The notes below the pieces were generated by a model. It did not search any database. It was not told the DNA's origin and was given only the letters and a program-made list of their open reading frames with translations. The position numbers were made by a program, and so were the translations under genes. From Alphaproteobacteria bacterium (GTDB lineage Bacteria; Pseudomonadota; Alphaproteobacteria; SP197), in assembly GCA_964291265.2 (NCBI GenBank), contig OZ219747.1:2688001-2752000 (forward strand): DNA of 64,000 bases, read 5' to 3'. Positions within the stretch are counted from its first letter, which is position 1, and every line of letters begins with the position of its first letter. Below, piece after piece: positions 3,783 through 33,073 of the stretch.

Positions 3783-3814
3783 GAACTCCCTCCCTCTGGT
3801 TCCTCAACGCCGCA

Positions 3815-4710: not shown

Positions 4711-4789
4711 AGAAACACGACCCTGACAAAGCGCGGCAAATCGCCGAAATCCCGCCGTTCTATGCAGCCATCAACAGCGCCTCCCAAAC

Positions 4790-4842
4790 GCATCCTCAAC
4801 CGGTGAATATCACCAACAATCACCGCGTGGCCGAACGCTTAC
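4790..4842 (+). mobile_element. Orphan IS66 right end
   Basis: ATCCTCAACCGGTGAATATCACCAACAATCAC...CCGAACGCTTAC, near-identical to 59951-60001. Confidence 0.85.
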
Positions 4843-4935
4843 TGCCGGCCATCACCCCGGCCGGAAGCGGTGACTCTCGCTCGTCACCATGAGTCGAACA
4901 GGCGGGCACAGGGCTTCGGCACCTCGGGCCCCGAA

Positions 4936-5207
4936 GCCTTTCAAAGTATCAGACCTGTATAGCAGCTGCTCCGCTTGGTGTTGTTGCGGGCATGCAGGTC
5001 GGTCTCCGCCATTTCGATTCGCGGACGCTTGACTGGTTCGCCGACGCGTTGCGCTACGCCGCCGCCACCCGTCTGGCCCGCGAGCTTTGCGAGCGCACCG
5101 GCTGGTACAACGCCCTCGGCCGTCCGTGCCTGTCGGCGTGTCGGCGGCGACGAAAGCGCAGCCGGCGCTCGCCGGTCGCGTGGGGCTTTGAGCTTCCGCC
5201 GCCACAT
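4936..5207 (+). pseudogene. 5' fragment of a DUF4338-containing (IS4-associated type) gene and its upstream end
   Basis: MQVGLRHFDSRTLDWFA...LCERTGWYNALGRPCLSA; inverted homolog of ~7400-7610. Confidence 0.7.
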
Positions 5208-5209
5208 AT

Positions 5210-5512
5210 GTCTTCGTCGACCATCCCCAGGTGCCCATGGACAACAACCTGGCCGAGAGAACCCTCCGGGGTGCGGTGACCGCGAGAAAGCTGAGCTTCG
5301 GCTCCGACAGCGAGGAGGGCGCCGCCTTCACCGCCATCATGTACTCGGTCATCGGCACCCTTGCCATGAACGGCATCAATGTTCGGCGCTGGCTTCATGA
5401 GTGGCTTGATGCCTGCGCGCAGAACGGCGGCAAGCCGCCGGATGACCTCGACCCGTGGCTGCCATGGTCGATGAGCCCGGAGTGCCGACGGGACCTCGCG
5501 GAACCGGGGTGA
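5210..5512 (+). pseudogene. tnpC: IS66 transposase C-terminal fragment
   Basis: PMDNNLAERTLRG...RKLSFGSDS...WLPW; near-identical to ~59320-59621. Confidence 0.9.
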
Positions 5513-6292
5513 TCGAGTGCCGTTACTACGGCCGTGACTTCACCGCGCACGAGATGGAGCTGTTGCGATCCCTGATCACCCAGCACCCCACCCGTGCGGC
5601 CATCGCCCGCGCCTTCTGCCGCGAGACCGGCTGGTACAAGCCCGACGGGAGCCTCAAGGACATGACGGCGAGGGTCGCCTTGCTGGCCATGCATCGCGAC
5701 GCCCTCATCACGCTGCCGCCACCCCAACACCGAGTGAACCGATCCGGGCCCATCGTCTTCGGACCCGACACAGAGCCACCACCCATCCCGCCTCCCACCA
5801 CACTCGACGAGGTGCGGCCCCTCGCTGTCTCCATCGTCACAGGCGGCAAACGGCAAGGAAAGCTGTGGAACGAGTTCGTCGACCGCCACCACTACCTCGG
5901 CCACACGAGACTGGTCGGAGCCCAGATGCGCTACGCCATCCATGATCGCAACGGAGCGCCCGTCGCCATGCTCGGCTTCTCCACCGCCGCCTGGAAAATC
6001 GCCCCGCGCGACACCTTCATCGGATGGACATCTGAACAGCGTCAGAAGAATCTGCCGCTGGTGGTCGATCCTCGCCTTTTTGATCATGTCCTGAGCTTTC
6101 CGTCGCCAACCTTGGGTCCCACATCCTCGCTATCATGCGGCGCCGACTGTCCGATGACTGGACCAGACGCTGCAACATCACCCCGGTCCTCATCGAAACC
6201 TTCGTCCAGACACCGCGCTACACAGGCGCCGTCTACAAGGCCTCAGGGTGGATCCGTGTCGGAAGCATCAAGGGACGAGGCCGTTACGAGTT
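5509..6292 (+). pseudogene. DUF4338 protein, IS66 passenger, frameshifted near 6070-6110 and 3'-truncated
   Basis: WNEFVDRHHYLG...GAQMRY...LGFSTAAWK..PRD.FIGW; continues in another frame LIETFV...GAVYKASGW..VGSIKGRGR; GTGA overlap with tnpC stop. Confidence 0.8.
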
Positions 6293-6488
6293 GCCGCGGG
6301 AGCGGAGCTGGGGCGGCTGTACGGGCAGGCCGCGACCAAGCGTCTGCCCGCACTTCTGAACACGAATGATCCCTTTGCCTCCGACGACCCACAAACCGGC
6401 CGCTGCAAGGCTTGAGAGATGTCTTCACCTACATGGATATCGATGTACAGCTGTGGAGGAAGTGGCACGAGCCCGATTCCCGCCATTA

Positions 6489-6797
6489 TTATTTCCGAAA
6501 ATATTCATAATCTCTCAATCTTTTCTTACATCTTTTCAGTTCATCCTCTGTGAACAGCTCGTGCCACTCCGCGTTATCGTGGACGACTGCTTCGACACTC
6601 AGATCCAAACGCCCGAGTTCCCAAAGTCGCGTGTACCCGTGCGAGGGTTGCGGACTATTGATAAGCTGTTTTGCTGTTTGAATGGGTCCCTTCTCAATCA
6701 GCATGCGATGAAAGATGCTCGGCGTGTAACCGATGCTCTTTGCTTCGCGATAAATAGCTTGCATGGCTTCGCCAAATCGACGCTCAACATCTGCCAT
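6489..6797 (-). CDS. Low-GC hypothetical protein (102 aa)
   Basis: Clean ORF with GAGGGAGAGG RBS; GYTPSIFHRM...AKQLI...SHGYTRLWELGRLDLSVEA...LFTEDEL motif. Confidence 0.75.
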   Translation of the reverse strand: MADVERRFGEAMQAIYREAKSIGYTPSIFHRMLIEKGPIQTAKQLINSPQPSHGYTRLWELGRLDLSVEAVVHDNAEWHELFTEDELKRCKKRLRDYEYFRK

Positions 6798-6881
6798 TGA
6801 ACCTCTCCCTCAATCTTGCGCCGCGCTGCTGGATTGTCTCATTAGAGGGTGAGCAATTAAATCTCACGCTCCTTTACAGCG

Positions 6882-7550
6882 TTAAGTGTGTGTAGGCCGT
6901 CCGGGCGCACGGCGTGCGTAGCGAGCCTCCCAGTCGTCGGCGATGCGCTCCGCCGCCATGCGCAGGACCCGGGAGGCCAGTCCGTAGACCCGAACGCCGG
7001 GAAGCAGGAGAAACCGATGACCGCAGATCACGCGCCCGATGTTGGCGGCACGGGCCACGGCGGACCATTTGATCCACTCGTCCCGCGCCCGCAGCTTCCA
7101 GGTCGCTAACCCGAATCCCGTCCCGCCGAGCGTGCCGTGGCGGTGCGAGCGGATCCAGTAGCGCTTCTGGCCGCCGGGCGGACGCGCCCATCCCAGGGGG
7201 TGATGCGTCGCCATCATCGCCTCCCAGATCCGGCGATCGTCGGCGTCGCCCACCGGTTCGAGCGAGACTGGGCCGAGATCCTCCAGCAGGCAGGCGAGCC
7301 TGGTATCAGGAACGTCTTCGGCCGGATCGGGGACGCCTTGCGGCGGCGGAAGCTCGAGTTCTGAGCGATCGGCGAGCGCTGGCAACGCCTTCGCTGTCGC
7401 CGACAGGCACGGACGGCCGAGGGCGTTGTGCCAGCCGGTGCGCTCGCAAAGCTCGTGAACCAGACGGTGACGGGTGGCGTCGGCGGAGCGCAATGCGCCG
7501 GCGAACCAGTCAAGCGTCCGCGAGTCGAAATGGCGGAGACCGACCTGCAT
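6882..7550 (-). pseudogene. Truncated DUF4338 domain of a DUF4338-IS4 transposase type gene
   Basis: WEAMMATHHPLGWARPPGGQKRYWI...WKLRARDEWI.W...RFLLLPGVRVYGLASRVL...DWEARY, then abrupt end. Confidence 0.75.
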
Positions 7551-7819
7551 GCACGCAGCATGCACGAAACGGATCAGGTGTACAGGTCTGATACTATGAA
7601 AGGCCCGAAGCCCGTGGAGGAGAGAACTGCCGCCGGACGGACTCTCAAGGGGGAAGGCGGTTCCCGGCACGAGAGTGAAAACAGGCATGCGCCATTGTCG
7701 GATAACCGTAACGCCGCAATGCAGCGGGGGTGTTTTGCCGGGCATCCGCATGGGAAGATGGCATCACGTGTTGTTCAAGGTTCATGTGCATGGAGGAGGG
7801 AGGCGCATGGTGAGGCACG

Positions 7820-8953
7820 ATGGCTGAACGGGCCGACTGCGTGGTGATCGGCGCGGGACTGATCGGTCTTGCGATCGCCCATGAACTTGCAGGGAAGGGG
7901 ATGTCCTGCCGCGTGATCGATCGGGGAAGGATCGCCGGCGGGACGACATCGACGACATTCGCCTGGCTCAATGCCACCTCCAAGCTGGAACAGGACTACC
8001 ATCGGCTCAACCTTGCCGGCGTGGAGGGACATCGGCAATGGGCTTCCCGCTGGGGGAGCGACGTGACCGGTCACCGGCAAACGGGCTGCCTGATGTGGGC
8101 GGGCACGGACACCGCCACCACCCCTGATGATCTCGAACGGACCTTCGAGCATCTCTCCCGCCTTGACTATCCCTGTTGCCGCGTCGGCGGGCGCGAACTG
8201 GCCGACCTGGAGCCGCGCATTGCCTTCGGTCACGAGGCCGAAGGATTGCTGATGCCGCTGGATGGTTGGCTCGATGCACCGCGTCTGGCCGGTCACCTCG
8301 CGGAAGGCATCGTGCGCGGGGGAGGCGCCATCCATGAGGAGGCGCCGGTGACTGGCTTCCTCGGCGCCGCTCCCCTTCTGGAGGGCGTCTTGAGCGCAAG
8401 GGGCCCGTTCCATGCCGACTGGATCGTCATCGCCGCCGGGACCGCAACCGGTGACCTCGCGGCCATGGCGCTCGGGCACCAGATGGCGTTCCGGCCGGTG
8501 GAGAGTGACCCCGGTCTCCTGGTGGAGATTGTCGGGGCAGGGGCGTGGCTCAATCGCGTCGTCTGTTTTCCCGAAGGTGACGATGAACTCCACGTGCGCC
8601 CCACTGCGGCAGGGGGGCTGCTGATGGGAGCGGATGCCGCGGACAGGATGCTGTCCGACGACCTGCGGGCGAGGCGCCATCTCGCCGCCAGGGCACGACA
8701 CTACCTCGTCGGCCTCGATGCGGCTGACGTGATGGCGCGGACGACTGCGCGGGTCGGGCATCGTCCGATGCCTGCGGACGGTCGCTCGATCGTCGGTCAC
8801 CTTCCCGGATGCGACAACGTCTTCGTCGCCGTGACCCACAGCGGTATCACCCTGGCGCCGGCCATAGGCGCCCTGCTGGCCGACGAGATCACCGGCAGGC
8901 CGGCGTCACCCCTGTTGCAGGAGTTCCGCCCCTACCGGTTCGCCTGGACATGA
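7820..8953 (+). CDS. FAD-dependent oxidoreductase, DAO/glycine oxidase family
   Basis: VIGAGLIG dinucleotide motif, RPMPADG, THSGITLAP. Confidence 0.9.
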   Translation: MAERADCVVIGAGLIGLAIAHELAGKGMSCRVIDRGRIAGGTTSTTFAWLNATSKLEQDYHRLNLAGVEGHRQWASRWGSDVTGHRQTGCLMWAGTDTATTPDDLERTFEHLSRLDYPCCRVGGRELADLEPRIAFGHEAEGLLMPLDGWLDAPRLAGHLAEGIVRGGGAIHEEAPVTGFLGAAPLLEGVLSARGPFHADWIVIAAGTATGDLAAMALGHQMAFRPVESDPGLLVEIVGAGAWLNRVVCFPEGDDELHVRPTAAGGLLMGADAADRMLSDDLRARRHLAARARHYLVGLDAADVMARTTARVGHRPMPADGRSIVGHLPGCDNVFVAVTHSGITLAPAIGALLADEITGRPASPLLQEFRPYRFAWT

Positions 8954-8992
8954 AAAAATGGGGGCCCTCCCGGTGGCAAGCCTGGAGGACCC
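8953..8992 (-). terminator. Intrinsic terminator of the ABC operon
   Basis: Minus strand GGGGTCCTCC...GGAGGGCCCC hairpin followed by ATTTTTT between convergent genes. Confidence 0.7.
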
Positions 8993-9004
8993 CTGGTCCC
9001 GGTG

Positions 9005-10546
9005 TCAGATCTTGTATCCGAGCGACCTGGCGCCGTCGATGAAGTTCCGGTACTGGGCCTTCTGCTTGTCGAGGCCGAGTTTCTGGGCGATCTGCACCCA
9101 CTCCTCGGCCGCCTCGTCGAGCGCCTGCTGCGAGGTCAGCTCACCGGAAATGGCCTTGGAGATGTTGCGCCCGAGGGCATCGGCGTACTCCGGTGCTCCC
9201 TCCCAGAAGAACTGCGGGTAGCCCACCTCGACATTGGCAAGACCGGCATCGAGATGATTGCGGGCCCTTCCGAAGGTCTGGAAGATGCCGTCGTTCGTCG
9301 GATAGATGTCGTTCGTCCCACGCTGCGGATTGGGCTCGATGTACATCTGCGCCGCTGCATCGGTGTAGTGCGTTGCGCCGAATGGATCGGACCCGCAGTA
9401 GGGATCGGCGACGATCCTGTCGGAGTAGTCGGGATGCGACATGCGGTAGATGAAGTAGAAGGCCGCATCCTTGATGTCCTGGGGCAGGTTCGCCGGAATG
9501 GAGGCCGTCCGGCACCACAGGCTGATCGCCCGGTGGAACACCTCGCCGTCGTCGTGGACCCAGCCCGGCACGATAGCCGCACCCTGATCTTCGGCACGCT
9601 CCATGCCCTGTTGCTGGACCGTGAATTCCGCGAGATCGATCCACCACACCGACATCACGTCCGAACCCGACTGCCAGCGCTGGATGGTCGTTCCGATATC
9701 CATGGCTTCGGCGCCCGGAGGTCCGAACTTGATGATCTCCTGGTACATGTCCAGAGACTCGGCCGCCTTGCCCTGGTTGATGACCGGGTTCATGTTCTCG
9801 TCGAAGTAGTTGACGCCGGCCGAAGCGGCGATGTCCATCCAGAAACCCCATCCGAAGTTTGGTGGATTGACGACCATCGACGTGCCGTAGATGCCCTGCG
9901 AACCCAGTTCCTCGGTCATGAACTGCGTGACGTTGAGGAAGTCCGGCCATGTGCTGGGGACTTCGAGACTGGTCTGGAAGCGCTTGGAGTACTTCGACTG
10001 CAGTTCCGCGTCCTCGAAGAAGCTCTTGCGATAGTGCAGGATGTGGATGTCGCCATCCAGCATCACGCCATAGGTCTTGCCGGCCCACTTCGTATAGAAC
10101 TCGCGGTAGGCGGGCATGACCCAGTCGAGATAGGCATCGCTGCCCTCGTACTGGGCGAAGTAGTCGTCCAGGGGCTCGAGCTGCCCGGTTTCGGCGAAGG
10201 CGCCGAAGAAGAGCGAGGGATACTGCACCCAGTCGAACCTTGGATTGCGTGACAGGAGCTGCGGCAGGATCTTGGCCACGGCCTCGCCGCCATCGTAGTT
10301 CTCGCGCCCCTTGATGCCGACACCGGCTTCATTCATCAGGTGCTCCGACAGCCACAGCGGTGCATGAAGCCAGTTCGAGTCCTGGAAGTAGGTCAGCTCG
10401 ACATCATTGAAGAGCTTCTTTCCTGGAGGAACGGACTGTGCGCCCCACGACAGCCTGCCGGGAAGCTGGAGGCCAGCCGCGGCACCAGCGCCGGCGGCTA
10501 CGGATTTCATGAACTTGCGTCGTGTCCATGCACTGAATACACCCAT
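9005..10546 (-). CDS. CUT1 ABC transporter substrate-binding protein, Tat-exported
   Basis: TRRKFMK twin-arginine signal; GQLEPLDDY, LHYRK, PSTWPD, GELTSQQALDEAA. Confidence 0.9.
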   Translation of the reverse strand: MGVFSAWTRRKFMKSVAAGAGAAAGLQLPGRLSWGAQSVPPGKKLFNDVELTYFQDSNWLHAPLWLSEHLMNEAGVGIKGRENYDGGEAVAKILPQLLSRNPRFDWVQYPSLFFGAFAETGQLEPLDDYFAQYEGSDAYLDWVMPAYREFYTKWAGKTYGVMLDGDIHILHYRKSFFEDAELQSKYSKRFQTSLEVPSTWPDFLNVTQFMTEELGSQGIYGTSMVVNPPNFGWGFWMDIAASAGVNYFDENMNPVINQGKAAESLDMYQEIIKFGPPGAEAMDIGTTIQRWQSGSDVMSVWWIDLAEFTVQQQGMERAEDQGAAIVPGWVHDDGEVFHRAISLWCRTASIPANLPQDIKDAAFYFIYRMSHPDYSDRIVADPYCGSDPFGATHYTDAAAQMYIEPNPQRGTNDIYPTNDGIFQTFGRARNHLDAGLANVEVGYPQFFWEGAPEYADALGRNISKAISGELTSQQALDEAAEEWVQIAQKLGLDKQKAQYRNFIDGARSLGYKI

Positions 10547-10619
10547 GGGATTCTTCCTTTCTCCTGGTCAATGTCGGGACAGGCAACATCCTGTCCCGGA
10601 TGGTGGGCGCGTGCGGCCG

Positions 10620-11720
10620 TCAGGTCACAAGCGCTCCGGATTCGCTGTCGAAGATCATCACGTCCCGCGGGTCCAGGCTGAAGCCCGCATGATCGCCCGG
10701 CGTCATCCGGGTGTCCGGAGGCGCCAGCGCCTGCAGGGTCACGTCGCCGGTCACGATCGAGAGGATGGACTTCTCCCCGAGGTATTCGTTGATCACGACC
10801 TTGCCGCCGATCGTCGCACCATGGTCGCAAAGATGAAGGTTCTGGGGGCGGATGCCCACCATGAACTCGCGTCCCCCATGGGCATCGAGGCTCGGCATCC
10901 GATCCGCAGCCACGTCAAAGACGAGATCCGCGCCGGTGGCATGGAGCTGGATGCACCCCGCGTCGTCGCGTCGTTCCACCGGGATGAAGGTCGTCGGTGG
11001 TTCGCCGATGAAGTCGGCCACGAACATGTTCGCGGGACGGTTGTAGAGCGTGTTGCGGTTGCCGACCTGCTGGAGTTCGGCGTTCGACATCACGGCAACC
11101 CTGTCCGCCAGCGCCAGGGCCTCCACCTGATCGTGCGTGACATAGATCATGGTGCGCCGGAGTTCCTGGTGAAGTCGCTTGAGGTCAAACAGCATCTGGA
11201 ACTTGAGGTGGGCATCGAGGTGGCTCATCACCTCGTCGAGAATGAACACCGCCGGCTCTCGAATCAAGGCCCGTCCCAGGCTGACGCGCTGCTGCTGACC
11301 GCCGGAGAGGACCGGTGGCTTGGCCGGGAGGATTTCGGTGATGCGCAGCAGTTCCGCCAGGTCCCGGGCACGGCGGCGCCTTTCTTCATGAGGCACACCG
11401 CGCACCTCAAGAGGAAAGGCGAGGTTCTCCTCGACGGTGAAGTTCGGGTAGAGGGCATAGGTCTCGAAGGCCATGGCCACGTTGCGATCCCTGGGCTCGA
11501 GATCGTTGACGCGCAGGTCGCCGAAGTGGATGGCGCCGGAGGTGATCGGTTCGAGACCGACGATCATGCGCAGCGTCGAGGTCTTGCCGCATCCGGATGG
11601 GCCCAGCAACGCCATGAATTCACCATCCGACACCGCGAGGTCGAGGTCGCGCACCGCGTGAACGCGTGCCCGTCCGGACCCGTAGATCTTGTTGACCTTG
11701 TTCAGTGTCACGTTCGACAT
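10620..11720 (-). CDS. ABC transporter ATP-binding subunit (MalK-like)
   Basis: GPSGCGKT, LSGGQQQR, ILDE, YVTHDQ. Confidence 0.95.
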   Translation of the reverse strand: MSNVTLNKVNKIYGSGRARVHAVRDLDLAVSDGEFMALLGPSGCGKTSTLRMIVGLEPITSGAIHFGDLRVNDLEPRDRNVAMAFETYALYPNFTVEENLAFPLEVRGVPHEERRRRARDLAELLRITEILPAKPPVLSGGQQQRVSLGRALIREPAVFILDEVMSHLDAHLKFQMLFDLKRLHQELRRTMIYVTHDQVEALALADRVAVMSNAELQQVGNRNTLYNRPANMFVADFIGEPPTTFIPVERRDDAGCIQLHATGADLVFDVAADRMPSLDAHGGREFMVGIRPQNLHLCDHGATIGGKVVINEYLGEKSILSIVTGDVTLQALAPPDTRMTPGDHAGFSLDPRDVMIFDSESGALVT

Positions 11721-18980: not shown

Positions 18981-19040
18981 TGTCGCCATGGCTTGCCGCG
19001 TTTAGCGCAGGCCGGGACCCGTCCCGACCCGGCCATGACA
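18981..19040. repeat. REP-like imperfect palindrome near the left edge of the lower-GC cassette
   Basis: GGCCGGG...CCCGGCCATGAC, resembling the alphaproteobacterial GTCATGGCCGGG..CCCGGCCATGAC element. Confidence 0.45.
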
Positions 19041-19267
19041 ACGAAGGAAAGAACCAGATCCATCACGATCCGATCGAGACAGGCCCGGCGGCGGCAGTCT
19101 TGCCTTCACGAATAACAGTGGGTGCGTGAAAGGTGGCATGGCACTGGATTGCACGGCCCCGATGAGCGACAATCAACCGTCAGGTGAGCGTGTCTTGCAT
19201 CGTGCCCGGCAGCGAAGGAAGCAAGTCTGGCGCAACAGCCAGCAGAACGCTCCCGAGGAGTGATACG

Positions 19268-20011
19268 ATGAAGGATGCGGACGAGTATCGGTTTGTCATC
19301 GACGCCTGCGACCCCGATACCCTGCCGATGTCGGATCTGGCCGAATACATGGCTGATCTGGCACGACTGCTCGGCAGTGAGGAGCAGGTGCATTTTGTGC
19401 GTCTTGAAGCTGGCAGCACCGTGCTCGTGCAGCAGGTCGAACGGCAAGCTGCTCCCGAAGTGAAACGCCGAATACATGAACTTGCCGCGCCCACTGCCCC
19501 GGAGGATGCGATCAGGGCATTTGCGGCACTCAACCGACGCCTGGCCAAGGACGGTGCAACCGGCAGCTTGCTGGAAGGTGTTGACACCGAAATCATCCGT
19601 TTTCCTGGTCGAGAGCACTCGCCAGGATTGACGTTCGGTGCCTTCAATCAGCTGGGTGTTCTCGACGGCGTGCTCATCCGCATCGGCGGACGGGACGACA
19701 CCGTGCCGGTGCATCTGCATGACGGCGAGACAATTCACGTATGCAACGCCACCCGTGACATGGCCAGGGATCTTGCGGCTTACCTTTACGGCCCGGTTCT
19801 GCGGGTGCACGGCGAAGGACGCTGGGAACGTACAGTGGATGGCATCTGGTTGATGAAGCGCTTCAGTATCTCGAAGTTCGGGGAACTCGATGATGCACCC
19901 TTGAGCGAAATCGTGGAGAGGTTGCGCGGTGTTGAAGGCAGCGGTTGGCAGGATATCGATGATCCGCTGGCGGAAGTCCGAAGATTGCGCGGTCTTGACG
20001 AGGTACACTGA
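19268..20011 (+). CDS. Hypothetical protein (247 aa), partner of the PIN protein
   Basis: GAGGAG RBS; PDTLPMSDLAEYM..LARLLG...VHFVRLEAGS; beta-rich C-terminal half; TGATG overlap with the PIN gene. Confidence 0.8.
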   Translation: MKDADEYRFVIDACDPDTLPMSDLAEYMADLARLLGSEEQVHFVRLEAGSTVLVQQVERQAAPEVKRRIHELAAPTAPEDAIRAFAALNRRLAKDGATGSLLEGVDTEIIRFPGREHSPGLTFGAFNQLGVLDGVLIRIGGRDDTVPVHLHDGETIHVCNATRDMARDLAAYLYGPVLRVHGEGRWERTVDGIWLMKRFSISKFGELDDAPLSEIVERLRGVEGSGWQDIDDPLAEVRRLRGLDEVH

Positions 20012-20481
20012 TGGCAATCTTCGATGCCACGACACTCCTGTACCTCCTCGAACCAGATGCAAGAGCGCCTCTTGATCCCGACACGAACAGCTCAGTGCCG
20101 GGTGCCCGACAACGCATCGAATTCCTGATCAAGACACTTGAAGCTCGACGCGAAACCGTCGTGATTCCGACTCCGGTTCTCAGCGAGGTACTGGTCCACG
20201 CTGGTGCCGCAGGACCCCGTTACCTCGACATACTGGACAGCACCCGTTGTGTCCGTATCGAGCCATTCGAGCGCCGGGCGGCCATCGAGCTTGCGGAGAT
20301 GACCCGCGATGCCATCAAAGACGGCGACCTGCGTGCCGGCACCGCAGCGACGCGGGCAAAGCTCAAGTTCGATCGACAGATCATCGCCATTGCGCGGACC
20401 GTGGGAGAGTCCACCATCTACTCCGATGACACGGATATCGCGAAGCTTGGCGGAATGCTCGGGCTCAGTATCGTACCCTAG
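20011..20481 (+). CDS. PIN-domain (VapC-like) nuclease
   Basis: IFDAT, IPTPVLSEVL, FDRQIIAIA, IYSDD acidic PIN pattern. Confidence 0.85.
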   Translation: MAIFDATTLLYLLEPDARAPLDPDTNSSVPGARQRIEFLIKTLEARRETVVIPTPVLSEVLVHAGAAGPRYLDILDSTRCVRIEPFERRAAIELAEMTRDAIKDGDLRAGTAATRAKLKFDRQIIAIARTVGESTIYSDDTDIAKLGGMLGLSIVP

Positions 20482-20652
20482 TTGCTTGGTGCGGACCATG
20501 AGTCGGCGGAGAAATGAACGTTGGATACCACTGGGCCGATCCCGCATCGCTCGCTCGGGCACGACTTCCACCGATGTGCTTCCCGCATTTGACGGACCGG
20601 TGTAGGTTTATCGGAGCCGACCGAGGGTGGCGACACGGTGCTGGAGTGATCG

Positions 20653-22968
20653 ATGCGAATGACGAATGTAGTGGCCGCCCTGCGGTCGTGGGTGGAACGT
20701 CTCTGGCTCTTCGCGAGCACGACCTTATCGCGTGTCGGCGAAGTCAGCCCGATCAGTTCGCCTCCGGTGTCCGAACCCGTGAACGGGACTGTGGACGCTG
20801 AAATGTTGGACCAGAGCGGGCCGCAGGCGGAAGATTCTCTCACTCAAGCCTCGGGCCAACTTGAGGGACTCAACGGCAATTATACTGAGAACGGGCTGCA
20901 CGACGACAAACAACCACCCATCGACTCGAACACCACTTCCGTCGAATCGAATCTCGATGCCGAAGATCAGCTGTCCCCGGTTTCCACTGAAAACGGGCCT
21001 GACAAGTCGCCCACTGTGGTTTCGCCGACGGGTGACGACAGCGAACAGACTCAGCTTGAGACCATCGACAAACCGGGAGATGGAGGGGCGGACGGCATTT
21101 CAGAGAGCGGCGCGAGTGAAGCAAATTCACAAAAAAAAACCGGGCCACACCGCAGCGGAGGGAAGAGAGGTACGCAGTCCGGCAGGCTGCCATCGGGTCA
21201 GCAGAAATCGCCATCTAACCGCCCCGAATTGGTCTGCCGGAAAAATCCCTCGTCTGCAGGTTGGGAGGTCATCCTGATCACAGACGAGAAAGCGCAACTT
21301 GACACCGTGTTCCTTGATGGTAGGCCCCTGGACTTCTCCGATGGACGATGCCGTATTCCGTCATTGGACGGATGCCTGACCGTTTCCTATCGAGACGGAC
21401 AGGAACATGTCGTACCTCTGTTCGAGAGCGAACCTCTCATCTTCAAGCTACCAAAGTACTGGTCTGGCGAAGGGCGCAGAACCACCGGGATCACCAGCGG
21501 GTACTTCATCGTTTTCGCTCCGAGTATATGGCAACGGACGGGTCACGCGCCAGTTGAAGCCGACGGCTGTGCCGATCCGGAATTCAGGGCGCATTATTTC
21601 CACCGGGACGCTTTCGCATCAGAAGGCGTTGACGGCTTTCGCGAGTCGGAAGCTCCCTTCGCCACCGGCATCGAATTGACCGGCCGGCGCATCTTCGACG
21701 ATTCTAAGGACGGCGAGCTGTTCGTCGGTGACCCACCCGATATGAAATCCCCGCCTGAGCTTGCATGGGCCCGGGTCGGAGAGGAAACCGGGAGTGGCTG
21801 GGGGGAGAACTTCAAACCCCAAGAGCAATCGCTCTCGAAGGTCTTGGGCAGAAGGAGAGGCCGCTTCTTTCTCCGAGTGTACGATTCGGAAGTCAGCATG
21901 CTCGACAGCCTGGCGTTCCGGCATCTGCCCAACTTGCGGCAGATCTGCGTCAATGGAGCTGAATACGCACCGGACACGGTGCTCGTACCGGGCCTGAGGG
22001 GATACCCGCCCATGGATGTGAGCTTTGTCAGCGCGGATAGCTCAACGCTTTCGCCTGTTCTGCCCACCGGGGCTCGCCAAAAGGTGCTGCCCTCGGGCGC
22101 GATTGAGGTTCCACCGCACCCGGACGCGGATCGCATAGAATGCAGGTTCGGATCCGATGCGCGCGGCGTGAACATCGTCGTCGACCTTCCTCGAATCTGG
22201 TGGCGATTGGACGGTCGCACCGATCCTGGTCCATGGCGCGATACTCCGCTTGTCATGACGCGAGAGGAGTTCCGCAAACAAGCTCACTCGGACGCGACGA
22301 TTTCGCTCCTGTCCAAGCGGCAAGTATCTGTCTGCGTGGGATTCGGCGACGAGCTGAACCAGCCTTACCGCCGAACGATCGAAGATGATCGTATTGTTGT
22401 CCCCCTGGATCACTTCGTCGATCACGCGCAGATCGACAGGAGACTGAATGCCGATGCCTGCTTCAACGTTCAGTGGGCACGGGAGATTGTGTCGCTCATC
22501 GTGATTTCGGCCGATCCCATGCCCGAGATTGTTTCGTTCACTGCGGAACCGGCGACAATTTTCGTCGGCGAGGAAACAGTGTTGGAGTGGACGAGCCGGA
22601 ACGCTGGCGACGCCCGCGTCGCCATGATTCCGGACGCAGGTGTGCTCAAAGTTGACGGATCATGCACCGTCCGCCCCGCTGAAACAACCACGTATACGCT
22701 CATCTTGGATGTTCTCGGCGCCGACGAAGTCAGCAGGACCGTTACGGTCGCCGTCGTTTCACCGACTACTTCGGGCAAACAGACGGTCCCTCGCGTCATG
22801 TCTACCGCAAGCGGGTGGAGAACCGGTAAAGGCTTCAGTTTCGGTGAACTCAAGGAAGCCGGGCTGTCGCTCAAGGAAGCAGTGGACCGATCCATTCCAA
22901 TAGACAGGCGCCGGCGGACCTTGCATCGAACCAACGTTGAGACAATCGGAAGGATGCTTGATGCCTGA
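20653..22968 (+). CDS. 771-aa multidomain protein: disordered N-terminus, beta-rich core, Ig/PKD-like domain, C-terminal eL13-like domain
   Basis: PEIVSFTAEPATI..GE...LEW...NA...GS..V.P..TTTYTL Ig-like motif; WRTGKGFSFGELKEAGL...IPIDRRRRTLH..NV. Confidence 0.8.
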   Translation: MRMTNVVAALRSWVERLWLFASTTLSRVGEVSPISSPPVSEPVNGTVDAEMLDQSGPQAEDSLTQASGQLEGLNGNYTENGLHDDKQPPIDSNTTSVESNLDAEDQLSPVSTENGPDKSPTVVSPTGDDSEQTQLETIDKPGDGGADGISESGASEANSQKKTGPHRSGGKRGTQSGRLPSGQQKSPSNRPELVCRKNPSSAGWEVILITDEKAQLDTVFLDGRPLDFSDGRCRIPSLDGCLTVSYRDGQEHVVPLFESEPLIFKLPKYWSGEGRRTTGITSGYFIVFAPSIWQRTGHAPVEADGCADPEFRAHYFHRDAFASEGVDGFRESEAPFATGIELTGRRIFDDSKDGELFVGDPPDMKSPPELAWARVGEETGSGWGENFKPQEQSLSKVLGRRRGRFFLRVYDSEVSMLDSLAFRHLPNLRQICVNGAEYAPDTVLVPGLRGYPPMDVSFVSADSSTLSPVLPTGARQKVLPSGAIEVPPHPDADRIECRFGSDARGVNIVVDLPRIWWRLDGRTDPGPWRDTPLVMTREEFRKQAHSDATISLLSKRQVSVCVGFGDELNQPYRRTIEDDRIVVPLDHFVDHAQIDRRLNADACFNVQWAREIVSLIVISADPMPEIVSFTAEPATIFVGEETVLEWTSRNAGDARVAMIPDAGVLKVDGSCTVRPAETTTYTLILDVLGADEVSRTVTVAVVSPTTSGKQTVPRVMSTASGWRTGKGFSFGELKEAGLSLKEAVDRSIPIDRRRRTLHRTNVETIGRMLDA

Positions 22969-25900
22969 TACCGACATAAGGGGTTGGCCGGAGAGAATTC
23001 GGCAACGCTACGAGAACTACCTGAAGACCTCTTTCTTCTTCAAGGAACCCCACTTGCGAGCGTCTTTCCAGGAAGCGTTGAGCGAAGAGGGAAGCCTCCT
23101 GCAGGGACCCTTTCCGGAACCCCATCGAGGTTTCGAGAAAAGACTTCACGCGCATGCGCTGGCAGGCGAGTGTTTCCCCGACTGTGCCGGAGGTCTCTTG
23201 CCAGCCCTGATTGATCGCCCGCTGTACGCACATCAGGAACGCGCCATCCGCGCCACGTATGTCGAGGACCTCAATGTGGTGGTCGCAACCGGCACCGCCA
23301 GCGGCAAGACCGAGAGCTTTCTCTACCCCATCCTGTTCGAACTGTATCGCCAGCATCTTGCCGGGGAGTTGGAAGAGCCGGGCGTGCGAGCGATGATCCT
23401 GTACCCCATGAATGCGCTAGCGAACGATCAGCGCGAGCGGCTCGGGGCAATCTGCGGCCGCTTGCGTGAAGCGGGATCCGATTTCGAGCCGACGTTCGGA
23501 CAATACATCGGCCAGACGCCGGAAAATGCCGGGGACCGATGGCGAAACGCGGCAGCTCGCGCCGACGACCGGTTATCCGGCGAGCTTGTCTTTCGCAACA
23601 AGATGCGGCAGTCGCCGCCTCACGTGCTGCTGACCAACTACTCCATGCTGGAGTACCTGTTGATACGTCCCGATGACAGCCCCCTGTTCGACGGCGGGAG
23701 AGGCGCACACTGGCGGTTCATCGTGTTGGACGAGGCGCATCAGTATCGTGGCGCGAGAGGCATGGAAATGGGGATGCTGATCCGCCGTCTCAAGCAACGG
23801 TTGCGCGATGGGGGACGGCAACGGCCGTTTCGATGCATCGCCACCAGTGCGACCATTACCTCCAGCCAAGGCGACGAAGATCGGCAGGCCGTAGCCGAGT
23901 TCGCATCGGAATTATTCGGCGAGTCTTTTTCGATACCATCCATCGTGTTTGGGGAGTCGCTCGGTGCCGACGATCACGGGCCTCCCAGGCGCTATCACGC
24001 GTTTCTCCGTGCGCTCGAGGGCGCCTTCCTCGTTCACCGGAATGGTGTCGATGCGGTGGTGCTCAATCGCAGGAACCAGGACGCAGGCGGCGCGGCCACG
24101 CAGCCGCTCGAGATCGCGCTGTGTCGCGAGTGTGGGCAGCATTACTACGTTGGTCGGGAGCACAAGGGGTGTCTGCGAGAAGCCATCCGTGATCCGAGCC
24201 ATCCAGAATTCGGTGTCGAGCATTATCTGCCGGCAGACGATGGAAACGAATGGCTGTGTAGACGCTGCGGCGCCTTGTCAGGCTCCACACCTGGCTGCGG
24301 CTGTGGCGCAGCAGTACGCGTAAGGAAGTGCGACTCCCACGAACACAATCCCGATCAACTGAAGAAGTGCGCCGTCTGCGGCTACCGGCGCGGAGGAGTT
24401 GGCGATCCCGTCCAGGAAATCGTGCATGGATCGGATGGTCCCAACACGGTTATCGCTACTGCGCTGCACGAACTGCTCCAGCAAGATCGGCGCAAGGTTC
24501 TCGCGTTTGCAGATAACCGTCAGGAGGCGGCGTTTTTCGCATGGTATGCCGAGGATTCTTACAAGAAGCTGCGTGACAGGAATTTCATCCTGAGAGCGAT
24601 CCTGTCGGAATCGGTTGCCGAAGAGGGCCTTTCGATCGATGACCTTCGGAGCCGTTTGCTCCGGGAATGGGACGATGCAGGACTCTTCCGCGAAGCCGAT
24701 ACCCGGGAGCAGCGAACCCGTCAGGTGCTGACGTCCATCCTGCGCGAGGCGGTTACGGACGAGAAGAGATTGTCCTTGGCTGGCGTCGGCCTGGTCAAGT
24801 GGTTTGTCGCTCTCCCCCGGGACCTCCGCTTGCCCGACGCCATGCTGCGGGCGCCCTGGAACCTCAGTGAAAACGACGCGCGTCTCCTGATCGGCCACGT
24901 TCTGGATGAGATGCGCCCGCGCCGTGCCATCAGCTTGCCCGAGGGCGCAGGGACGCCCGAATGGAGCGCTGTCTCGCCTTGGCCGCAACAGGCATTCGGC
25001 ACAGCACCACGCGGCAGGCGGCGCCATGTTCTGCAATGGGGCGGCTCGCAATCGGCGATCGTTAGTCATTTCCTTCGCCGGCTCCTGGCAGACAGTGATC
25101 TGACCGATGACAGGAAGCGAACCGTGTCGATTGAACTGATGAAGGAGATTTGGCTCGCCCTGCGGGACAATGCTCGTGACCCCTTACTCCGGTGTGCAAG
25201 CAAAAACGGCACATTCCAGCTTGACTCGCGCTGGCTTCGGATCAAACCGGCCAACCTCGACGAAATTTGGGAGTGCGACATTTGCGCAACGCTCGGAAAC
25301 TATAACATTCGAGGTGTATGCCCGCGTAACCACTGTCCTGGTACGCTCTCCCCGGCTCGTCAAGAACGTCTGGTCGGCAACCACTATCGTATCCTCTATG
25401 AGAGTCCCGCATTGCCCCCCGAACTGCGCGCCGAAGAACACACCGCCCAGATCGATGCCGACGAGGCGCGCCGGAGGCAGGACGAGTTCAAGAATGGCGA
25501 CATTCACCTGCTCAGCTCCTCGACCACGTTTGAGGTTGGCGTCGATCTTGGCGATCTGGAGGCCGTCTTTCTCCGCAATGTTCCCCCGGAATCGTTCAAC
25601 TACGCTCAGCGCGCCGGTCGGGCCGGTCGGCGGGACACACCTGGCCTGGTGCTGACCTACTGCCGCCGCAATCCCCACGACCTCTATCATTACGAGAAAC
25701 CCGTCGGTCGCGTGATCGAAGGTACAATACACCCGCCGCGTCTGCACATGACGAACGAGAAGATCGTTCTGCGCCATATGGTTGCCGTTGCCCTGTCAGA
25801 GTTCTTCAAGCAGGATCCAGACAGGTTCCGGAACGTCGAAACGTTTTTGGGTGGCTGGCATGTGCCTCGTGCAACGAAAGACCTGTTCGGCTTCTGCGAA

Positions 25901-27163
25901 GATAACGGAGAACTGAAGGAAACCATGCGCCGCATCGTTCCGGCGAACATGCATGACCGGGTCGGTCTTGACGATGATGCCTGGGTTTTGAACATAACGG
26001 GCAAGGACAGCCGCCTTGCTCTCGCGGAGGCGGAGGTGAGCGCGGACTTTACCGCGATGGAGACCCTTCGCAGGGAGTATTTCGACAAGGGCAAGGACAG
26101 TTCGATCGGACGTATCCGCAAGCGGATGAAGACCATTGCGGAGGAGAGGGCGCTGAACTTCCTTTCCCGTAAAGCTATCATTCCGAAGTACGGGTTTCCG
26201 GTGGATGTCGTCGAGCTGGATGTCCGGTCAACGGACGAACGGCCAACCGGTGTCGCGCTTCAGCGGGACCTGTCCCAGGCGATCGCCGAGTACGCTCCGG
26301 GTGGTAAGGTGGTTGCCAACAAACTCGAATGGGAGTCCTGCGGCGTCAAGGCGATTGCCGGGAAAGCATGGCCTGTGCGCCATTACCGGTATGACGATGC
26401 CCGCAGTTTCAGGCAATGGAACGAGGGTGACCCCGACGCACCTTCGGACGAACGGAAGTACCTCATTCCCGAGTTCGGTTTCGTAACTCCCCTGTTCAAG
26501 AAGCCTGCTGAGCCGCAGGGGCGCGCACGACGCCTCTACACGACGCGACCGTTCTTTCGCGATTTCGACGCGCAACCCAAGACCAAAACCGTTCTCGGCG
26601 TGAAGGTGACACGGGCTGTTCCCGGGGTCCTGGTCATCCTGTGCGAAGGCCGGAACAGGGCGGGGTTCTACATCTGCCGATCTTGCGGAAGTCACATGAC
26701 GGTGCCTCAGGTCCCCCACAGATCGCCATCTGGCTCCGATTGCAAGAAGAGCACATTGGAACGATTTTCCCTTGGCCATGAACTGGCCACTGACGTCGTG
26801 CGCCTTCAGTTTCCGATGGTCCACGGCGAGTGGGATGCGTATTCGGTCGCTTACGCCGTCCTGCTCGGTGCGGCAGACACGCTCGAAGTGCCGGACACCG
26901 ACCTTAACGTCACCATTGCTGGCGGAGATAGTCCGGGTGAGTCCGCGGTTGTGCTCTACGACAACGTGCCGGGTGGCGCCGGGTTGGTGGCACAGCTGGA
27001 AAACGAACAGATCTTGGGCGAAGTCCTTGGCGCCGCTACGGAACGGGTGCGGGGCAATTGTGGCTGCGACACCAGCTGCTACGGTTGCCTCCGCAGTTAC
27101 CGCAATCAATTTGCACATGCCCAACTCGACCGGACCCGGGCGCTGGATATCCTTACCCGATAG
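22961..27163 (+). CDS. YprA/DruE-like SF2 DEAH helicase with Zn-finger inserts and C-terminal DUF1998 (MrfA Zn-binding) domain
   Basis: LYAHQ, TGTASGKT, YPMNALANDQ, TNYSMLEYLL, LDEAH, TSAT, AFADNRQ, STTFEVGVDLG, QRAGRAGR, YDNVPGGAG...CGC..SCYGCL; ATG at 22961 overlaps the upstream stop by 8 nt. Confidence 0.93.
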   Translation: MPDTDIRGWPERIRQRYENYLKTSFFFKEPHLRASFQEALSEEGSLLQGPFPEPHRGFEKRLHAHALAGECFPDCAGGLLPALIDRPLYAHQERAIRATYVEDLNVVVATGTASGKTESFLYPILFELYRQHLAGELEEPGVRAMILYPMNALANDQRERLGAICGRLREAGSDFEPTFGQYIGQTPENAGDRWRNAAARADDRLSGELVFRNKMRQSPPHVLLTNYSMLEYLLIRPDDSPLFDGGRGAHWRFIVLDEAHQYRGARGMEMGMLIRRLKQRLRDGGRQRPFRCIATSATITSSQGDEDRQAVAEFASELFGESFSIPSIVFGESLGADDHGPPRRYHAFLRALEGAFLVHRNGVDAVVLNRRNQDAGGAATQPLEIALCRECGQHYYVGREHKGCLREAIRDPSHPEFGVEHYLPADDGNEWLCRRCGALSGSTPGCGCGAAVRVRKCDSHEHNPDQLKKCAVCGYRRGGVGDPVQEIVHGSDGPNTVIATALHELLQQDRRKVLAFADNRQEAAFFAWYAEDSYKKLRDRNFILRAILSESVAEEGLSIDDLRSRLLREWDDAGLFREADTREQRTRQVLTSILREAVTDEKRLSLAGVGLVKWFVALPRDLRLPDAMLRAPWNLSENDARLLIGHVLDEMRPRRAISLPEGAGTPEWSAVSPWPQQAFGTAPRGRRRHVLQWGGSQSAIVSHFLRRLLADSDLTDDRKRTVSIELMKEIWLALRDNARDPLLRCASKNGTFQLDSRWLRIKPANLDEIWECDICATLGNYNIRGVCPRNHCPGTLSPARQERLVGNHYRILYESPALPPELRAEEHTAQIDADEARRRQDEFKNGDIHLLSSSTTFEVGVDLGDLEAVFLRNVPPESFNYAQRAGRAGRRDTPGLVLTYCRRNPHDLYHYEKPVGRVIEGTIHPPRLHMTNEKIVLRHMVAVALSEFFKQDPDRFRNVETFLGGWHVPRATKDLFGFCEDNGELKETMRRIVPANMHDRVGLDDDAWVLNITGKDSRLALAEAEVSADFTAMETLRREYFDKGKDSSIGRIRKRMKTIAEERALNFLSRKAIIPKYGFPVDVVELDVRSTDERPTGVALQRDLSQAIAEYAPGGKVVANKLEWESCGVKAIAGKAWPVRHYRYDDARSFRQWNEGDPDAPSDERKYLIPEFGFVTPLFKKPAEPQGRARRLYTTRPFFRDFDAQPKTKTVLGVKVTRAVPGVLVILCEGRNRAGFYICRSCGSHMTVPQVPHRSPSGSDCKKSTLERFSLGHELATDVVRLQFPMVHGEWDAYSVAYAVLLGAADTLEVPDTDLNVTIAGGDSPGESAVVLYDNVPGGAGLVAQLENEQILGEVLGAATERVRGNCGCDTSCYGCLRSYRNQFAHAQLDRTRALDILTR

Positions 27164-27520
27164 TGTGAAGGACTCGGCAACGCGTGGGGCGGACCTGACC
27201 CAGTGGAGCACCACGGTGTCGCGGTTCCGCACGAGGCGGACGACGGTTTGGCGTTTCTGAAGGGTGACGGAAGTCACGGTTGGCGGCAGGTCGTTGGCCC
27301 CGCTGGCTGCCGAAGAGACCGGCATGGAGGACATCGGGTTCAGCCCCCTCCGCGCGCCGCTGAGGCTGACAGCGTCGAATGTCGTGCGTGAGTTGAGTCT
27401 GCAGGCACATGACAACGCCTGGTTCAGCCGTCGCACGCTGTCGTTCCTGATGACGCGGGAGCGGACCGGGGAAGGTCTTGATCCGGAGTGATGGCCCGTG
27501 TCAAGGCCTTCGGCTGGGTC

Positions 27521-31025: not shown

Positions 31026-31355
31026 TCAACCCTTCGGGAACGGAATGACGTTGCCTCTGTCGTCTGTCTCGTTGGTGTTGATCGTGATGGTCAGAGGATC
31101 GCCTTCGCCATCGGCGGTCTTCGCACGGATCTCCACCTCGTACACGACCCCGGGCTCCAGGTCGACAAAGGTACACGTCGGCAAGGGCGACTCGAATCCA
31201 GGCCCCCACGGCACCGAGCCCTTCTCGCGTATGCGGATGACATGGGTAACAGACGATTCCCACCGTGCATCGATCGTCCGACCGTCATCGACCGGAAGCG
31301 ATACGTGCCAGGCCTTGCCATCCCACGTGATCTTCGGACTTGCGATGTCGGTCAT
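31026..31355 (-). CDS. Small stand-alone fibronectin type III domain protein
   Basis: W...VIRIRE....W......FVDLEPGVVYEVEIRAKTADGEG Fn3 pattern; ATGA overlap with the upstream gene. Confidence 0.7.
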   Translation of the reverse strand: MTDIASPKITWDGKAWHVSLPVDDGRTIDARWESSVTHVIRIREKGSVPWGPGFESPLPTCTFVDLEPGVVYEVEIRAKTADGEGDPLTITINTNETDDRGNVIPFPKG

Positions 31356-33073
31356 CGAGGCGTCCATTCCTCGATCCGGTACTCGGTTCGCAGGAACTGC
31401 CTGCGAGTCTGGAGTCCTTCAAACACCTCGTCGGCATTCATTCGTTCAAGAGAATCGAGCGTCAGGGATGATCGGGCTTCGGCATAGAAGCGGTCGCTGC
31501 ACCGTTCCACGTAAGCCTCTTGCCACCATGTGCAGATCCGGTCCCTGGCGCCCTCGAGAGCCTCAGCCGATGGAAGGCGCGCACACTTCTCATTCTGATT
31601 GACGTGCCTGTGGGCGGGAAGGAGGTTCCACAGGGCATCGCAAGGCCAGGCCGCCCATGGCATGCAGTGATCGATGTTGAGGCTCCTGCTGTCAAGCCTG
31701 CGGCCCGTCCAGACGCAATGGAGGGTCCCCGATTCGAGAAGATTCCGGGAGATCTCGCGGGCATCGCCGACATCGCGGTCAGGGTCGGACCAACGCATGG
31801 CGTCGGCGGCCTCTTGATGATTGAACTCTTCGCCCTGCCTCGCTGCCCAGTCGGACATCAGCTTGGTCCACTCGGCGACAAGCGCCGGCTCGATCCAGGC
31901 GTCATGGCGCCTGAGCGAGTTCCACAAGTGGACGGGGACGCGAAGGCTGCCGAACTGTGCCAGGTACCCCTGGTCGATGAGAAGTGACCCGGGCGCCGCC
32001 TTGCTTCTTTCCCTGTGCGCTTCGAACACCTGGTCGCTGGAACCCGGCAATGTCATGTGTCTGATCGGCATTTCGACGATGTTGGCGGCGGCATCCCGTA
32101 ACGCCCTGTGCAGGCCATGGGCCTCGGAACCCGAGAAACTGCGGCCGACACGCAGGTCGAAGGCGGCGACATCGCTGATCGCATGCCAGCCTTCCTGGTG
32201 GATGAACCCGAGACTGAAGACGTCGTGGCGGCCGGGGCGTTGTCGCAGGCCGGCGCCGACCAGCGGCTTGTAGAGTCTGAGCCAGTTGAGGGCAACGAGA
32301 CCGAGGGGCACGGTGACGAACTTGTCGTCATCATGGTGCGCCATGCCGGGGGCGCCGTCGGCGGCCCGCGCCACGGCGCGGAGCAGGCCGAGCTTGTAGG
32401 TCGCTGACTTCCTGTCGTTGAGGATGATGTGGCGAAGCAGGGGGAGCGCGCCCGTGCCGTCATCGGGAAGCTGCAGGGCCACCTGCTCCCACCTGATGCC
32501 GGGACGGTTCAGACTGTCTGGCGTGATGTCCCTGGCAAGCGTCATGGCGCCATGGCGGCGGGCGAGGGATTCAATGTCGGCCGCGGTGGAGCGGTGCATG
32601 CCGTCGTCGGCGTCGTTGCCGCCGACACGCAGCGCGAAGATCATGAGCCCGCCGGGCTTGAGGACGCTGATGAGCTTGCGAAAGGCACGCGGCCGCTCAT
32701 TCGGATGGACATGCATCCACACGGCATTGAGCAGAATGACGTCGTAGCTCAGGCCCCTTCCGACAACGCGTCCGAGCGTCGGCAGGCCATCGCGGATCCA
32801 GGTGATTCGCGGTGTCGGGTGTCTTCGTTGCGCTTCGGCGAGCATCGTCGCCGAAGGGTCGACAGCCACGACCTCGTAGCCCCTTGCAGCGAACCACGCG
32901 GCGTCGCGGCCCGATCCGGCGCCGACATCGAGCACGGCAGACGGTGGAGCCGGCAGGCGATCGGCGAACCAGGCATGGAGCGCATCGGGGTCGACGGATT
33001 CATAGCGCTCGGCAAGGGCGCGTCCCGCATCGCCCTCGTACCTGCCCATCTGGCTGGGTGTCCTGGCCATCAT
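31352..33073 (-). CDS. Class I SAM-methyltransferase fused to an HNH endonuclease
   Basis: VLDVGAGSGRDA, AVWMH, LKPGG; KSATYKLGLL; CVWTG...IDHCMPW...WNLLP....VN..K. Confidence 0.88.
   Translation of the reverse strand: MMARTPSQMGRYEGDAGRALAERYESVDPDALHAWFADRLPAPPSAVLDVGAGSGRDAAWFAARGYEVVAVDPSATMLAEAQRRHPTPRITWIRDGLPTLGRVVGRGLSYDVILLNAVWMHVHPNERPRAFRKLISVLKPGGLMIFALRVGGNDADDGMHRSTAADIESLARRHGAMTLARDITPDSLNRPGIRWEQVALQLPDDGTGALPLLRHIILNDRKSATYKLGLLRAVARAADGAPGMAHHDDDKFVTVPLGLVALNWLRLYKPLVGAGLRQRPGRHDVFSLGFIHQEGWHAISDVAAFDLRVGRSFSGSEAHGLHRALRDAAANIVEMPIRHMTLPGSSDQVFEAHRERSKAAPGSLLIDQGYLAQFGSLRVPVHLWNSLRRHDAWIEPALVAEWTKLMSDWAARQGEEFNHQEAADAMRWSDPDRDVGDAREISRNLLESGTLHCVWTGRRLDSRSLNIDHCMPWAAWPCDALWNLLPAHRHVNQNEKCARLPSAEALEGARDRICTWWQEAYVERCSDRFYAEARSSLTLDSLERMNADEVFEGLQTRRQFLRTEYRIEEWTPR

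Follow-up and report, generated by a model that had tools for sequence, protein, structure and literature searches.

A host-gene capture slot on the partner protein of a Druantia III-B-like helicase pair

The closest described relatives of the locus reported here are the type III Druantia systems. Type III-B (PMC12458937, PMC13316683) consists of two overlapping genes, of which the partner comes first and the second encodes a nuclease-less DEAH helicase of the YprA family with zinc modules and an MZB domain. The Druantia III-like branch is mostly nuclease-less (Bell et al., PMC12458937), and the M. smegmatis system MSMEG_1253/1254, of which MSMEG_1254 is placed in the Druantia Type III-B-like class of Table S1 of that survey (PMC12458937), is protective against mycobacteriophages (PMC13316683). 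In type III-A, represented by the E. coli structures (DruH 9TUD, DruE 9TU7-9TUC), DruE has two PLD domains, and DruH has six Ig-like subdomains between its N- and C-terminal domains and a single-stranded DNA (ssDNA) site between Ig5 and the C-terminal domain (10.64898/2026.05.12.722862); its N- and C-terminal regions are helical, and no annotated domain is reported. DruE loads on exposed ssDNA and unwinds in the 3'-5' direction, defence requires DruH, and in E. coli DruH leaves DruE upon infection (10.64898/2026.05.13.724758). DruH has been proposed as a sensor in the Druantia literature, and whether it is sensor, scaffold or ssDNA binder is stated as an open question in the 2026 Druantia papers. 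Here we describe a gene pair at 20653..27163 of a 64,000-nucleotide stretch of an Alphaproteobacteria genome (contig OZ219747.1, positions 2,688,001 to 2,752,000; hereafter the window), a Druantia III-B-like pair whose partner protein carries a previously unremarked slot for captured host genes.

The gene pair and its relatives

Both genes lie on the forward strand. Gene 1 (20653..22968; P0001, 771 aa) holds the DruH position and is called the partner, and gene 2 (22961..27163; P0002, 1400 aa) encodes a nuclease-less, DruE-like SF2 helicase of the YprA family that falls in the Druantia III-B-like clade. An earlier note on this DNA had described two genes overlapping by 8 nt in a segment poorer in GC than its flanks, the second gene being a DEAH helicase of about 1400 aa with zinc fingers and DUF1998 and no nuclease, and each of these points was verified. 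Both open reading frames are present and overlap, start on stop, in ATGCCTGA (22961..22968, + strand), which makes translational coupling of the two genes likely; the ATG at 22961 is the start of gene 2, and an alternative in-frame TTG at 22937 would lengthen the product to 1408 aa. GC content is 0.600 over 19001-27200, against 0.643 and 0.651 in the 10-kb flanks and 0.647 in the whole genome, a drop that is genuine yet modest.

As read from the sequence, the helicase motifs of gene 2 are intact. Walker A (GTASGKT, aa 111-117, 23291..23311), Walker B (DEAH, aa 257-260, 23729..23740), a QRAGRAGR motif at aa 883 and several CxxC pairs accompany an MZB/DUF1998 zinc domain (aa 1297-1377, 26849..27091; PF09369, 46.9 bits), the Pfam matches being DEAD, Helicase_C and MZB, and the protein ends only 23 aa beyond the MZB match with no nuclease appended. 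The two C-terminal PLD domains of type III-A are absent, gene 2 having 1400 aa against 2104 aa. A stretch of about 110 aa that follows RecA1 in deeper relatives is missing too, probably at the position of a BrxA-like/WH domain. The best PADLOC models are those of DruE (E 3e-145 to 4e-103), far ahead of the DrmA and DpdJ models, which score far below their cut-offs, and homology to DruE extends to the structure 9tu7 (E 3e-69). The helicase of locus L014, 79% identical to gene 2, and that of L064 are classed as 'Druantia Type III-B-like' in Table S1 of Bell 2025 (PMC12458937), two of the six contig accessions or tags looked up being found among the 34,868 rows covered. In a quick tree of 24 rows the helicase clade is sister to C. 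butyricum III-B, with an SH-aLRT of 94 and long branches. The proposal of a Druantia-III-like pair is supported, by the DruE matches, the III-B-like relatives, the clade position and the conserved upstream partner. That of a candidate new module stands in one half only: since relatives of gene 2 are already in the Table S1 class, its kind of helicase is known, whereas no prior description was found of a partner with an eL13 tail.

Relatives were collected by a word-indexed search with the partner, which gave 161 matches, and by a profile search of which the best 150 of 1,473 library proteins at E up to 1e-30 were used, Ig-repeat proteins included (three of these 150 are Ig-repeat proteins without the core described below). 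The sample of loci numbers 85, with 69 from genomes and 16 from metagenomes. Synteny of the gene pair across genomes, which the earlier note had asked for, is seen in 77/85 loci, where a helicase homologue lies 3' of the partner on the same strand and the single upstream partner is conserved with no further conserved genes. About nine of these 77 helicases are split or frameshifted, and the eight loci without one are either at a contig edge (four) or have a truncated partner (four). The overlap is 8 nt long, with an ATG start, in 41/85 loci and 4 nt long in 11/85. Other neighbouring gene families, read from neighbour clusters, are each common to six loci at most, and the BrxHII-like helicase with methylase, split DrmAB and dpd genes that mark ARMADA, DISARM and Dpd are absent among the conserved neighbours. 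The genome loci come from Pseudomonadota, Acidobacteriota, Actinomycetota, Chloroflexota, Spirochaetota and further groups, and the taxon names suggest that many source genomes are sponge-associated metagenome-assembled genomes. The pair is patchily spread across many phyla and absent from 400 other genomes of the window's phylum (E 1e-60); a first genome scan with the single partner protein gave 0/132 pattern matches, and no partner relative occurs among 52 pattern matches in viral contigs. In L049 a second, distant YprA-like helicase (1666 aa; 3812-8812, - strand) is divergent from a broken partner gene.

The layout that had been read from gene 1 (acidic disordered N-terminus, beta-rich core, Ig-like domain, eL13-like tail) was confirmed by structure models and Pfam. 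Residues 19-188 (20707..21216, + strand) form a length-variable and weakly constrained region with pLDDT below 50 in the AlphaFold2 model, beta-rich domains following thereafter, and within it aa 20-158 hold 27 D/E against 4 K/R. The conserved core, aa 189-621 (21217..22515, + strand), consists of predicted tandem beta-sandwich or Ig-like domains and, when folded alone, is modelled with a pLDDT of 91.5 and a pTM of 0.84. Foldseek and VIA-align searches with the full model, and Foldseek with the core (TM <0.22), returned generic Ig arrays only, and the best score of an ESM Atlas search with the core (0.77) was uninformative. The Ig-like domain that follows, aa 622-703 (22516..22761, + strand; Z 9.7, rmsd 1.9 over 82 residues), is optional, being carried by 45/85 loci, and matches the virion protein phrog_2155 (E 1e-7). 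In L044 (9779-12757) and P0236 the last core domain is duplicated internally, with two extra copies in L044, so the beta-sandwich array can expand. Several deep-branching partners (L064-L069, L075-L080) have weak N-terminal matches to Neur_chan_memb, ZorB and PD-Lambda-1 (transmembrane or coiled-coil), a hint in their sequences that they may be membrane-anchored, unlike the window's clade.

By its position and Ig-like make-up the partner may be called DruH-like in role, its kinship with DruH being putative. A DruH-like array of Ig-like domains is present, in the form of the predicted tandem beta-sandwiches and the last domain with its Z of 9.7, but this is a common fold and weak evidence of kinship. 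No PADLOC DruH match was obtained for P0001 and 16 relatives, and neither HMM nor hhalign comparison matched the partner to E. coli DruH or to the C. butyricum III-B partner family; this comparison has no power, because the C. butyricum profile, run as a control, also misses E. coli DruH. DruH is likewise not among the fold-search rows listed for the partner, and may be absent from that structure library. Partners in this family are as a rule 640-800 aa long, against about 1070-1130 aa described for III-B, their N-terminus is disordered where that of III-B is described as globular, and, unlike III-B, they end in a swappable captured domain; no similarity to the DruH sequences compared was detectable.

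A swappable C-terminal slot

The end of the partner, aa 712-771 (22786..22968, + strand), is in the window an archaeal-type eL13 domain (PF01294, aa 722-759; 27.8 bits against a cut-off of 24.9), the sole Pfam match of the protein, which has no PADLOC match, and the family profile matches archaeal eL13 9e6q_AH with E 1.4e-10. Both the motif and the length are those of the short archaeal form (PF01294, PRK12277), to which the fusion with a bacterial defence-type protein is foreign; with 49 bits against an equivalog cut-off of 96 the tail is by that test not a functional ribosomal eL13. Across the family this position is a swappable slot that has been refilled many times, often with ribosomal or RNA-polymerase-associated domains. 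Tails in the 85 loci are eL13 in 62, something else in 16 and truncated in seven, and in the redundant set of proteins with a full core 212/256 have an eL13 match. Above Pfam cut-offs, the replacements include uS2 (L053, 308 bits), uS5 (L063 and P0207), uS9 (L075 and L079), RpoZ (L036), the N-terminal domain (NTD) of RpoA (P0231), the N-part of TrcR (L056 and P0256) and MacB_PCD; a PDB search adds the C-terminal repeat of NusA (NusA-AR2) in P0265 (E 2e-7), and the NusG-N tail of L042 is borderline (18.3 bits in one search and 23.5 bits in another; cut-off 22.2). The remaining tails other than eL13 are zinc fingers or gave no identification. In L058 sigma70 regions stand upstream of the core in the same open frame, the start codon being putative, and the eL13 tail is kept. 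These regions (7436-11485) come in an unusual order, 2-4 and then 1.2. In L042 (8678-13948) the core and the NusG-N-like domain are followed by a complete SNF2 helicase (1756 aa in all), before a split DruE-like gene.

Two further tails, in P0174 and P0218, resemble bS6 on visual inspection, but searches of Pfam, the PDB and their own genomes were empty and they were not counted; neither were those of L032 and P0254, putative Rho-associated helical proteins. The recurrent tail X1 has no stand-alone copy in five genomes, and its look-alikes in the ESM Atlas (TM 0.72-0.79), a lead only, are small hypothetical proteins, often of phages.

A FastTree phylogeny of 209 cores was built from the loci, the window and the proteins of the profile search. 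Truncated rows and P0006-P0124 were excluded from it, and the tail of P0250 was assigned to eL13 by eye. Tails of eL13 occur throughout the tree, including the deepest branches, with the 34 other rows nested among them, and eL13 is likely to be the ancestral tail. At least 26 tail changes are required on this tree, and by eye about 27 separate positions bear a tail other than eL13, nine of them with transcription or translation domains. An approximately unbiased (AU) test with 65 rows, a test chosen once the tree was known, rejected a single clade for the 11 transcription and translation tails (p-AU 1.5e-56). Some repeats, X1 among them, may have spread by recombination between systems instead of by fresh capture.

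The source of some occupants can be read directly, and the native gene is kept as a separate gene in all six genomes examined (uS2, uS5, RpoZ, TrcR, NusG and sigma70 forms). Over 680 nt, the uS2 tail of L053 shares 96.3% identity with the genome's own rpsB (dN 0.018, dS 0.099); this copy begins about 6 nt ahead of the native start and has a host-like GC of 0.638 inside a context of 0.41-0.47. In L036 the rpoZ copy is 97.7% identical to the native gene over 311 nt, with an identical protein over 100 aa, and its start lies only a few bases from that of the native gene. Both are recent copies from the same genome. Assembly chimerism was considered as the cause of these fusions and rejected, because the copies differ from native rpsB and rpoZ at many sites. 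The TrcR tail is 75.6% identical to its native gene over 131 nt, the uS5 and NusG tails have diverged too far for a DNA match, and the sigma70 region of L058 shares 51-55% identity with two native sigma70 genes in its genome; P0207, P0231, P0256 and P0265 are sequences without genomic context. The L053 genome has a third rpsB copy (L086:1345-3504, + strand; G001:C1 near 1942823), which shares 99% identity with the native gene over 852 nt. An acidic linker joins this copy to a C-terminal domain that resembles HNH on visual inspection and has no Pfam match; it suggests that uS2 was captured a second time, separately, into a possible nuclease, and a habit that reaches beyond Druantia.

The eL13 tail has another history. 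That of the window is the only PF01294 match in its genome and has no native counterpart there, and PF01294 was found in 0/14 control genomes, 10 of them bacterial. Among 116 small stand-alone eL13 matches many are 40-55% identical to it and several are named L13e of Bathyarchaeota or Desulfurococcales; since its closest stand-alone relatives include archaeal-type L13e, it was probably captured long ago. In three small proteins (P0396, P0401, P0498) an eL13-like domain is combined with HhH or Rho_N domains, so that eL13 moves as a module outside the partner family too. Further captured housekeeping fragments were sought in the window's genome by self-BLAST, and none was among the matches listed.

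Handle, bait or something else

Our preferred reading, to which we assign a probability of roughly 0.45, is that this is a conserved, nuclease-less Druantia III-B-like pair, likely anti-phage, whose swappable tail would be a handle or bait on the host's transcription-translation machinery and gate the helicase. The Ig-like array of the partner would be the scaffold that does the gating, and the tail would dock on, or imitate, the ribosome or RNA polymerase; a phage factor that binds, modifies or strips that machinery would change the state of the partner, and the changed partner would license the DruE-like helicase, with phage DNA replication blocked as the outcome. Such parts are phage targets, as with T4 Alt and ModA on RpoA, AsiA on sigma70 and lambda N on NusA. 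In the window itself the tail most likely works as a handle that grips rRNA or RNA, and not as the decoy of a host protein, because its host lacks a native eL13; the decoy reading fits better for the RpoA, RpoZ, NusA, NusG, TrcR and S-protein forms. The earlier note had given the partner a ribosomal-protein-like RNA-binding domain, and here the eL13 domain proved real while a fixed RNA-binding role did not, the slot being swappable: it is also filled by acidic RNA-polymerase parts that do not bind RNA (net charge -12 for the RpoZ tail region), so eL13 is one occupant among several.

A bolder form of this reading, by analogy with plants, is more tentative, and we would not expect it to hold on present evidence: the partner would be a bacterial immune sensor with an integrated-decoy slot, in which genes of the host ribosome or RNA polymerase are copied as bait for phages and a hit activates a DNA helicase. 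In plant NLR receptors, integrated decoys are host proteins that have been copied into an immune protein. With these the slot shares its variability, its many independent gains and the keeping of the native gene, and an extra, repeatedly gained copy of a host protein is what the uS2, uS5, RpoZ, TrcR, NusG and sigma70 forms present, though not the window's own eL13 tail. Unlike the plant receptors, it belongs to a prokaryotic helicase system, its bait function is putative, and its commonest occupant, eL13, is foreign to the present bacterial hosts. Transcription-factor domains also occur within the defence loci MzaA (PADLOC), which the sigma70 region of L058 matches with E 2e-60, and TALON/TOTE, where TALON encodes a TBP beside a YprA helicase; as far as described, those parts are fixed and not a slot refilled from the current host genome. 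If the bolder form were true, the catalogue of captured tails would map the host parts under phage attack in uncultured bacteria, and the slot could be reprogrammed. Tails that are baits would make a prokaryotic parallel to the integrated decoys of plants, and tails that are tethers would tie a defence helicase to the transcription-translation machine; under either, selection of an archaeal ribosomal protein domain across many bacterial phyla is surprising. The family supplies natural domain swaps at one position, which makes the question of the role of DruH directly testable. In the literature, judged by title and the start of the abstract and with few subscription papers and no bioRxiv supplements among the sources, we found no eL13 or captured housekeeping domain on a DruH-type protein; the terms 'ribosomal' and 'L13' are absent from the Druantia and YprA texts checked, and the literature searches gave no instance of a defence-type gene into which essential genes of the same genome (rpsB, rpoZ) had repeatedly been captured in frame.

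Several observations weigh against our preferred reading. Only nine of the approximately 27 replacement positions hold identified transcription or translation domains, one other being MacB_PCD and the rest zinc fingers or unidentified, and this excess is itself inflated because conserved families are easier to recognise; for two unidentified tails no stand-alone copy was found in their own genomes. Two captures sit in loci that may be decaying, the helicase being split in L042 and its start frameshifted in a T-run in L036, which may be sequencing error or decay. DruH homology of the partner goes undetected, as it does between two accepted DruH-position proteins. Lastly, a pure decoy fails for the commonest form, because bacteria lack eL13 and yet eL13 is the tail in 62/85 loci.

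The strongest alternative, which we nonetheless consider unlikely, keeps the Druantia III-B-like defence pair and makes the tail no more than a grip on nucleic acid, in place of the C-terminal domain with which DruH binds ssDNA, so that ribosomal proteins, NusG-N, sigma70, helix-hairpin-helix repeats and zinc fingers would all be kept for binding RNA or ssDNA. The slot does have the position of the reported ssDNA site of E. coli DruH, between Ig5 and the C-terminal domain (10.64898/2026.05.12.722862). With a pI of 11.2 and a conserved DRRRR-type motif the eL13 tail is basic, and several other tails are zinc fingers. Yet the tail regions with RpoZ, RpoA-NTD, NusA-AR2, uS2 and NusG range from neutral to strongly acidic, at a net charge of -2 to -12, and both RpoZ and RpoA-NTD serve in protein interaction. 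Because the net charge of the tails ranges from -12 to +22, general nucleic-acid binding is not their common property.

It is less probable still that the C-terminus only tolerates insertions, the housekeeping fragments having arrived by illegitimate recombination or from abundant transcripts, with near-neutral or inactivating effect, and having been over-counted for their ease of recognition. In L036 an entire rpoZ with its own stop was inserted into eL13, leaving an out-of-frame remnant behind, next to the frameshifted helicase start; L042 adds an SNF2 fusion to its split helicase, and the uS5 of L063 is heavily diverged. The captures are nevertheless in frame and begin at the N-terminus of the domain, and L053 retains both the ATGCCTGA overlap and an intact helicase. 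In seven pairwise comparisons with the window, which are not independent of each other, dN/dS is 0.23-0.38 for the eL13 tail, similar to the core (0.24-0.32), and 0.41-0.94 for the disordered N-terminal region. The eL13 tail is under purifying selection, which neutral landing would leave unexplained, and dN/dS is also low for uS9 (0.19 between two loci, at a dS of about 1), X1 (0.25-0.28) and the zinc-finger tail (0.30). Furthermore, 68/68 helicase ends with the MZB motif stop 16-33 aa past it without additions, so the additions are specific to the partner.

Improbable, in our view, is a tail that works as an instability timer, in which orphan ribosomal or RNA-polymerase subunits are proteolysed and an inhibitory partner decays once the phage shuts off host expression, freeing the helicase. 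Every identified housekeeping tail is a subunit of a large assembly, the coupled translation of the genes would suit such a timer, and DruH is reported to be lost from DruE upon infection; in both characterised type III systems DruH is needed for defence and not just inhibitory, and whole folded domains under purifying selection exceed the needs of a degron. That the pair is no anti-phage system but a DNA-repair or mobile-element maintenance module, coupled by its tail to transcription, is the most improbable, for although the YprA family includes the repair enzyme MrfA (PMC12458937) and no conserved defence neighbours were seen at the related loci, the helicase falls among III-B-like DruE proteins, to which MSMEG_1254, shown by experiment to protect, also belongs, the pair is patchy across phyla (0/400 other genomes of the same phylum), and its GC lies below that of the genome.

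Neighbouring genes in the window

Directly upstream of the pair is a two-gene cassette (19184-20481, + strand) whose genes overlap by one base, one being a 275-aa frame that matches phrog_19868 (E 8e-46) and the other encoding a PIN-domain protein (PF01850); it is likely to be a toxin-antitoxin pair, and its homologues are absent from the 85 related loci. Some 4 kb downstream, a gene at 31352-33073 (- strand) encodes a SAM methyltransferase fused to an HNH_4 domain, its N-part matching PADLOC mad2 (E 1e-22), and is possibly a further defence gene. Elsewhere the window contains a tRNA-Phe gene (47947-48032, + strand) and patches of low GC at about 50001-51000 and 60001-62000.

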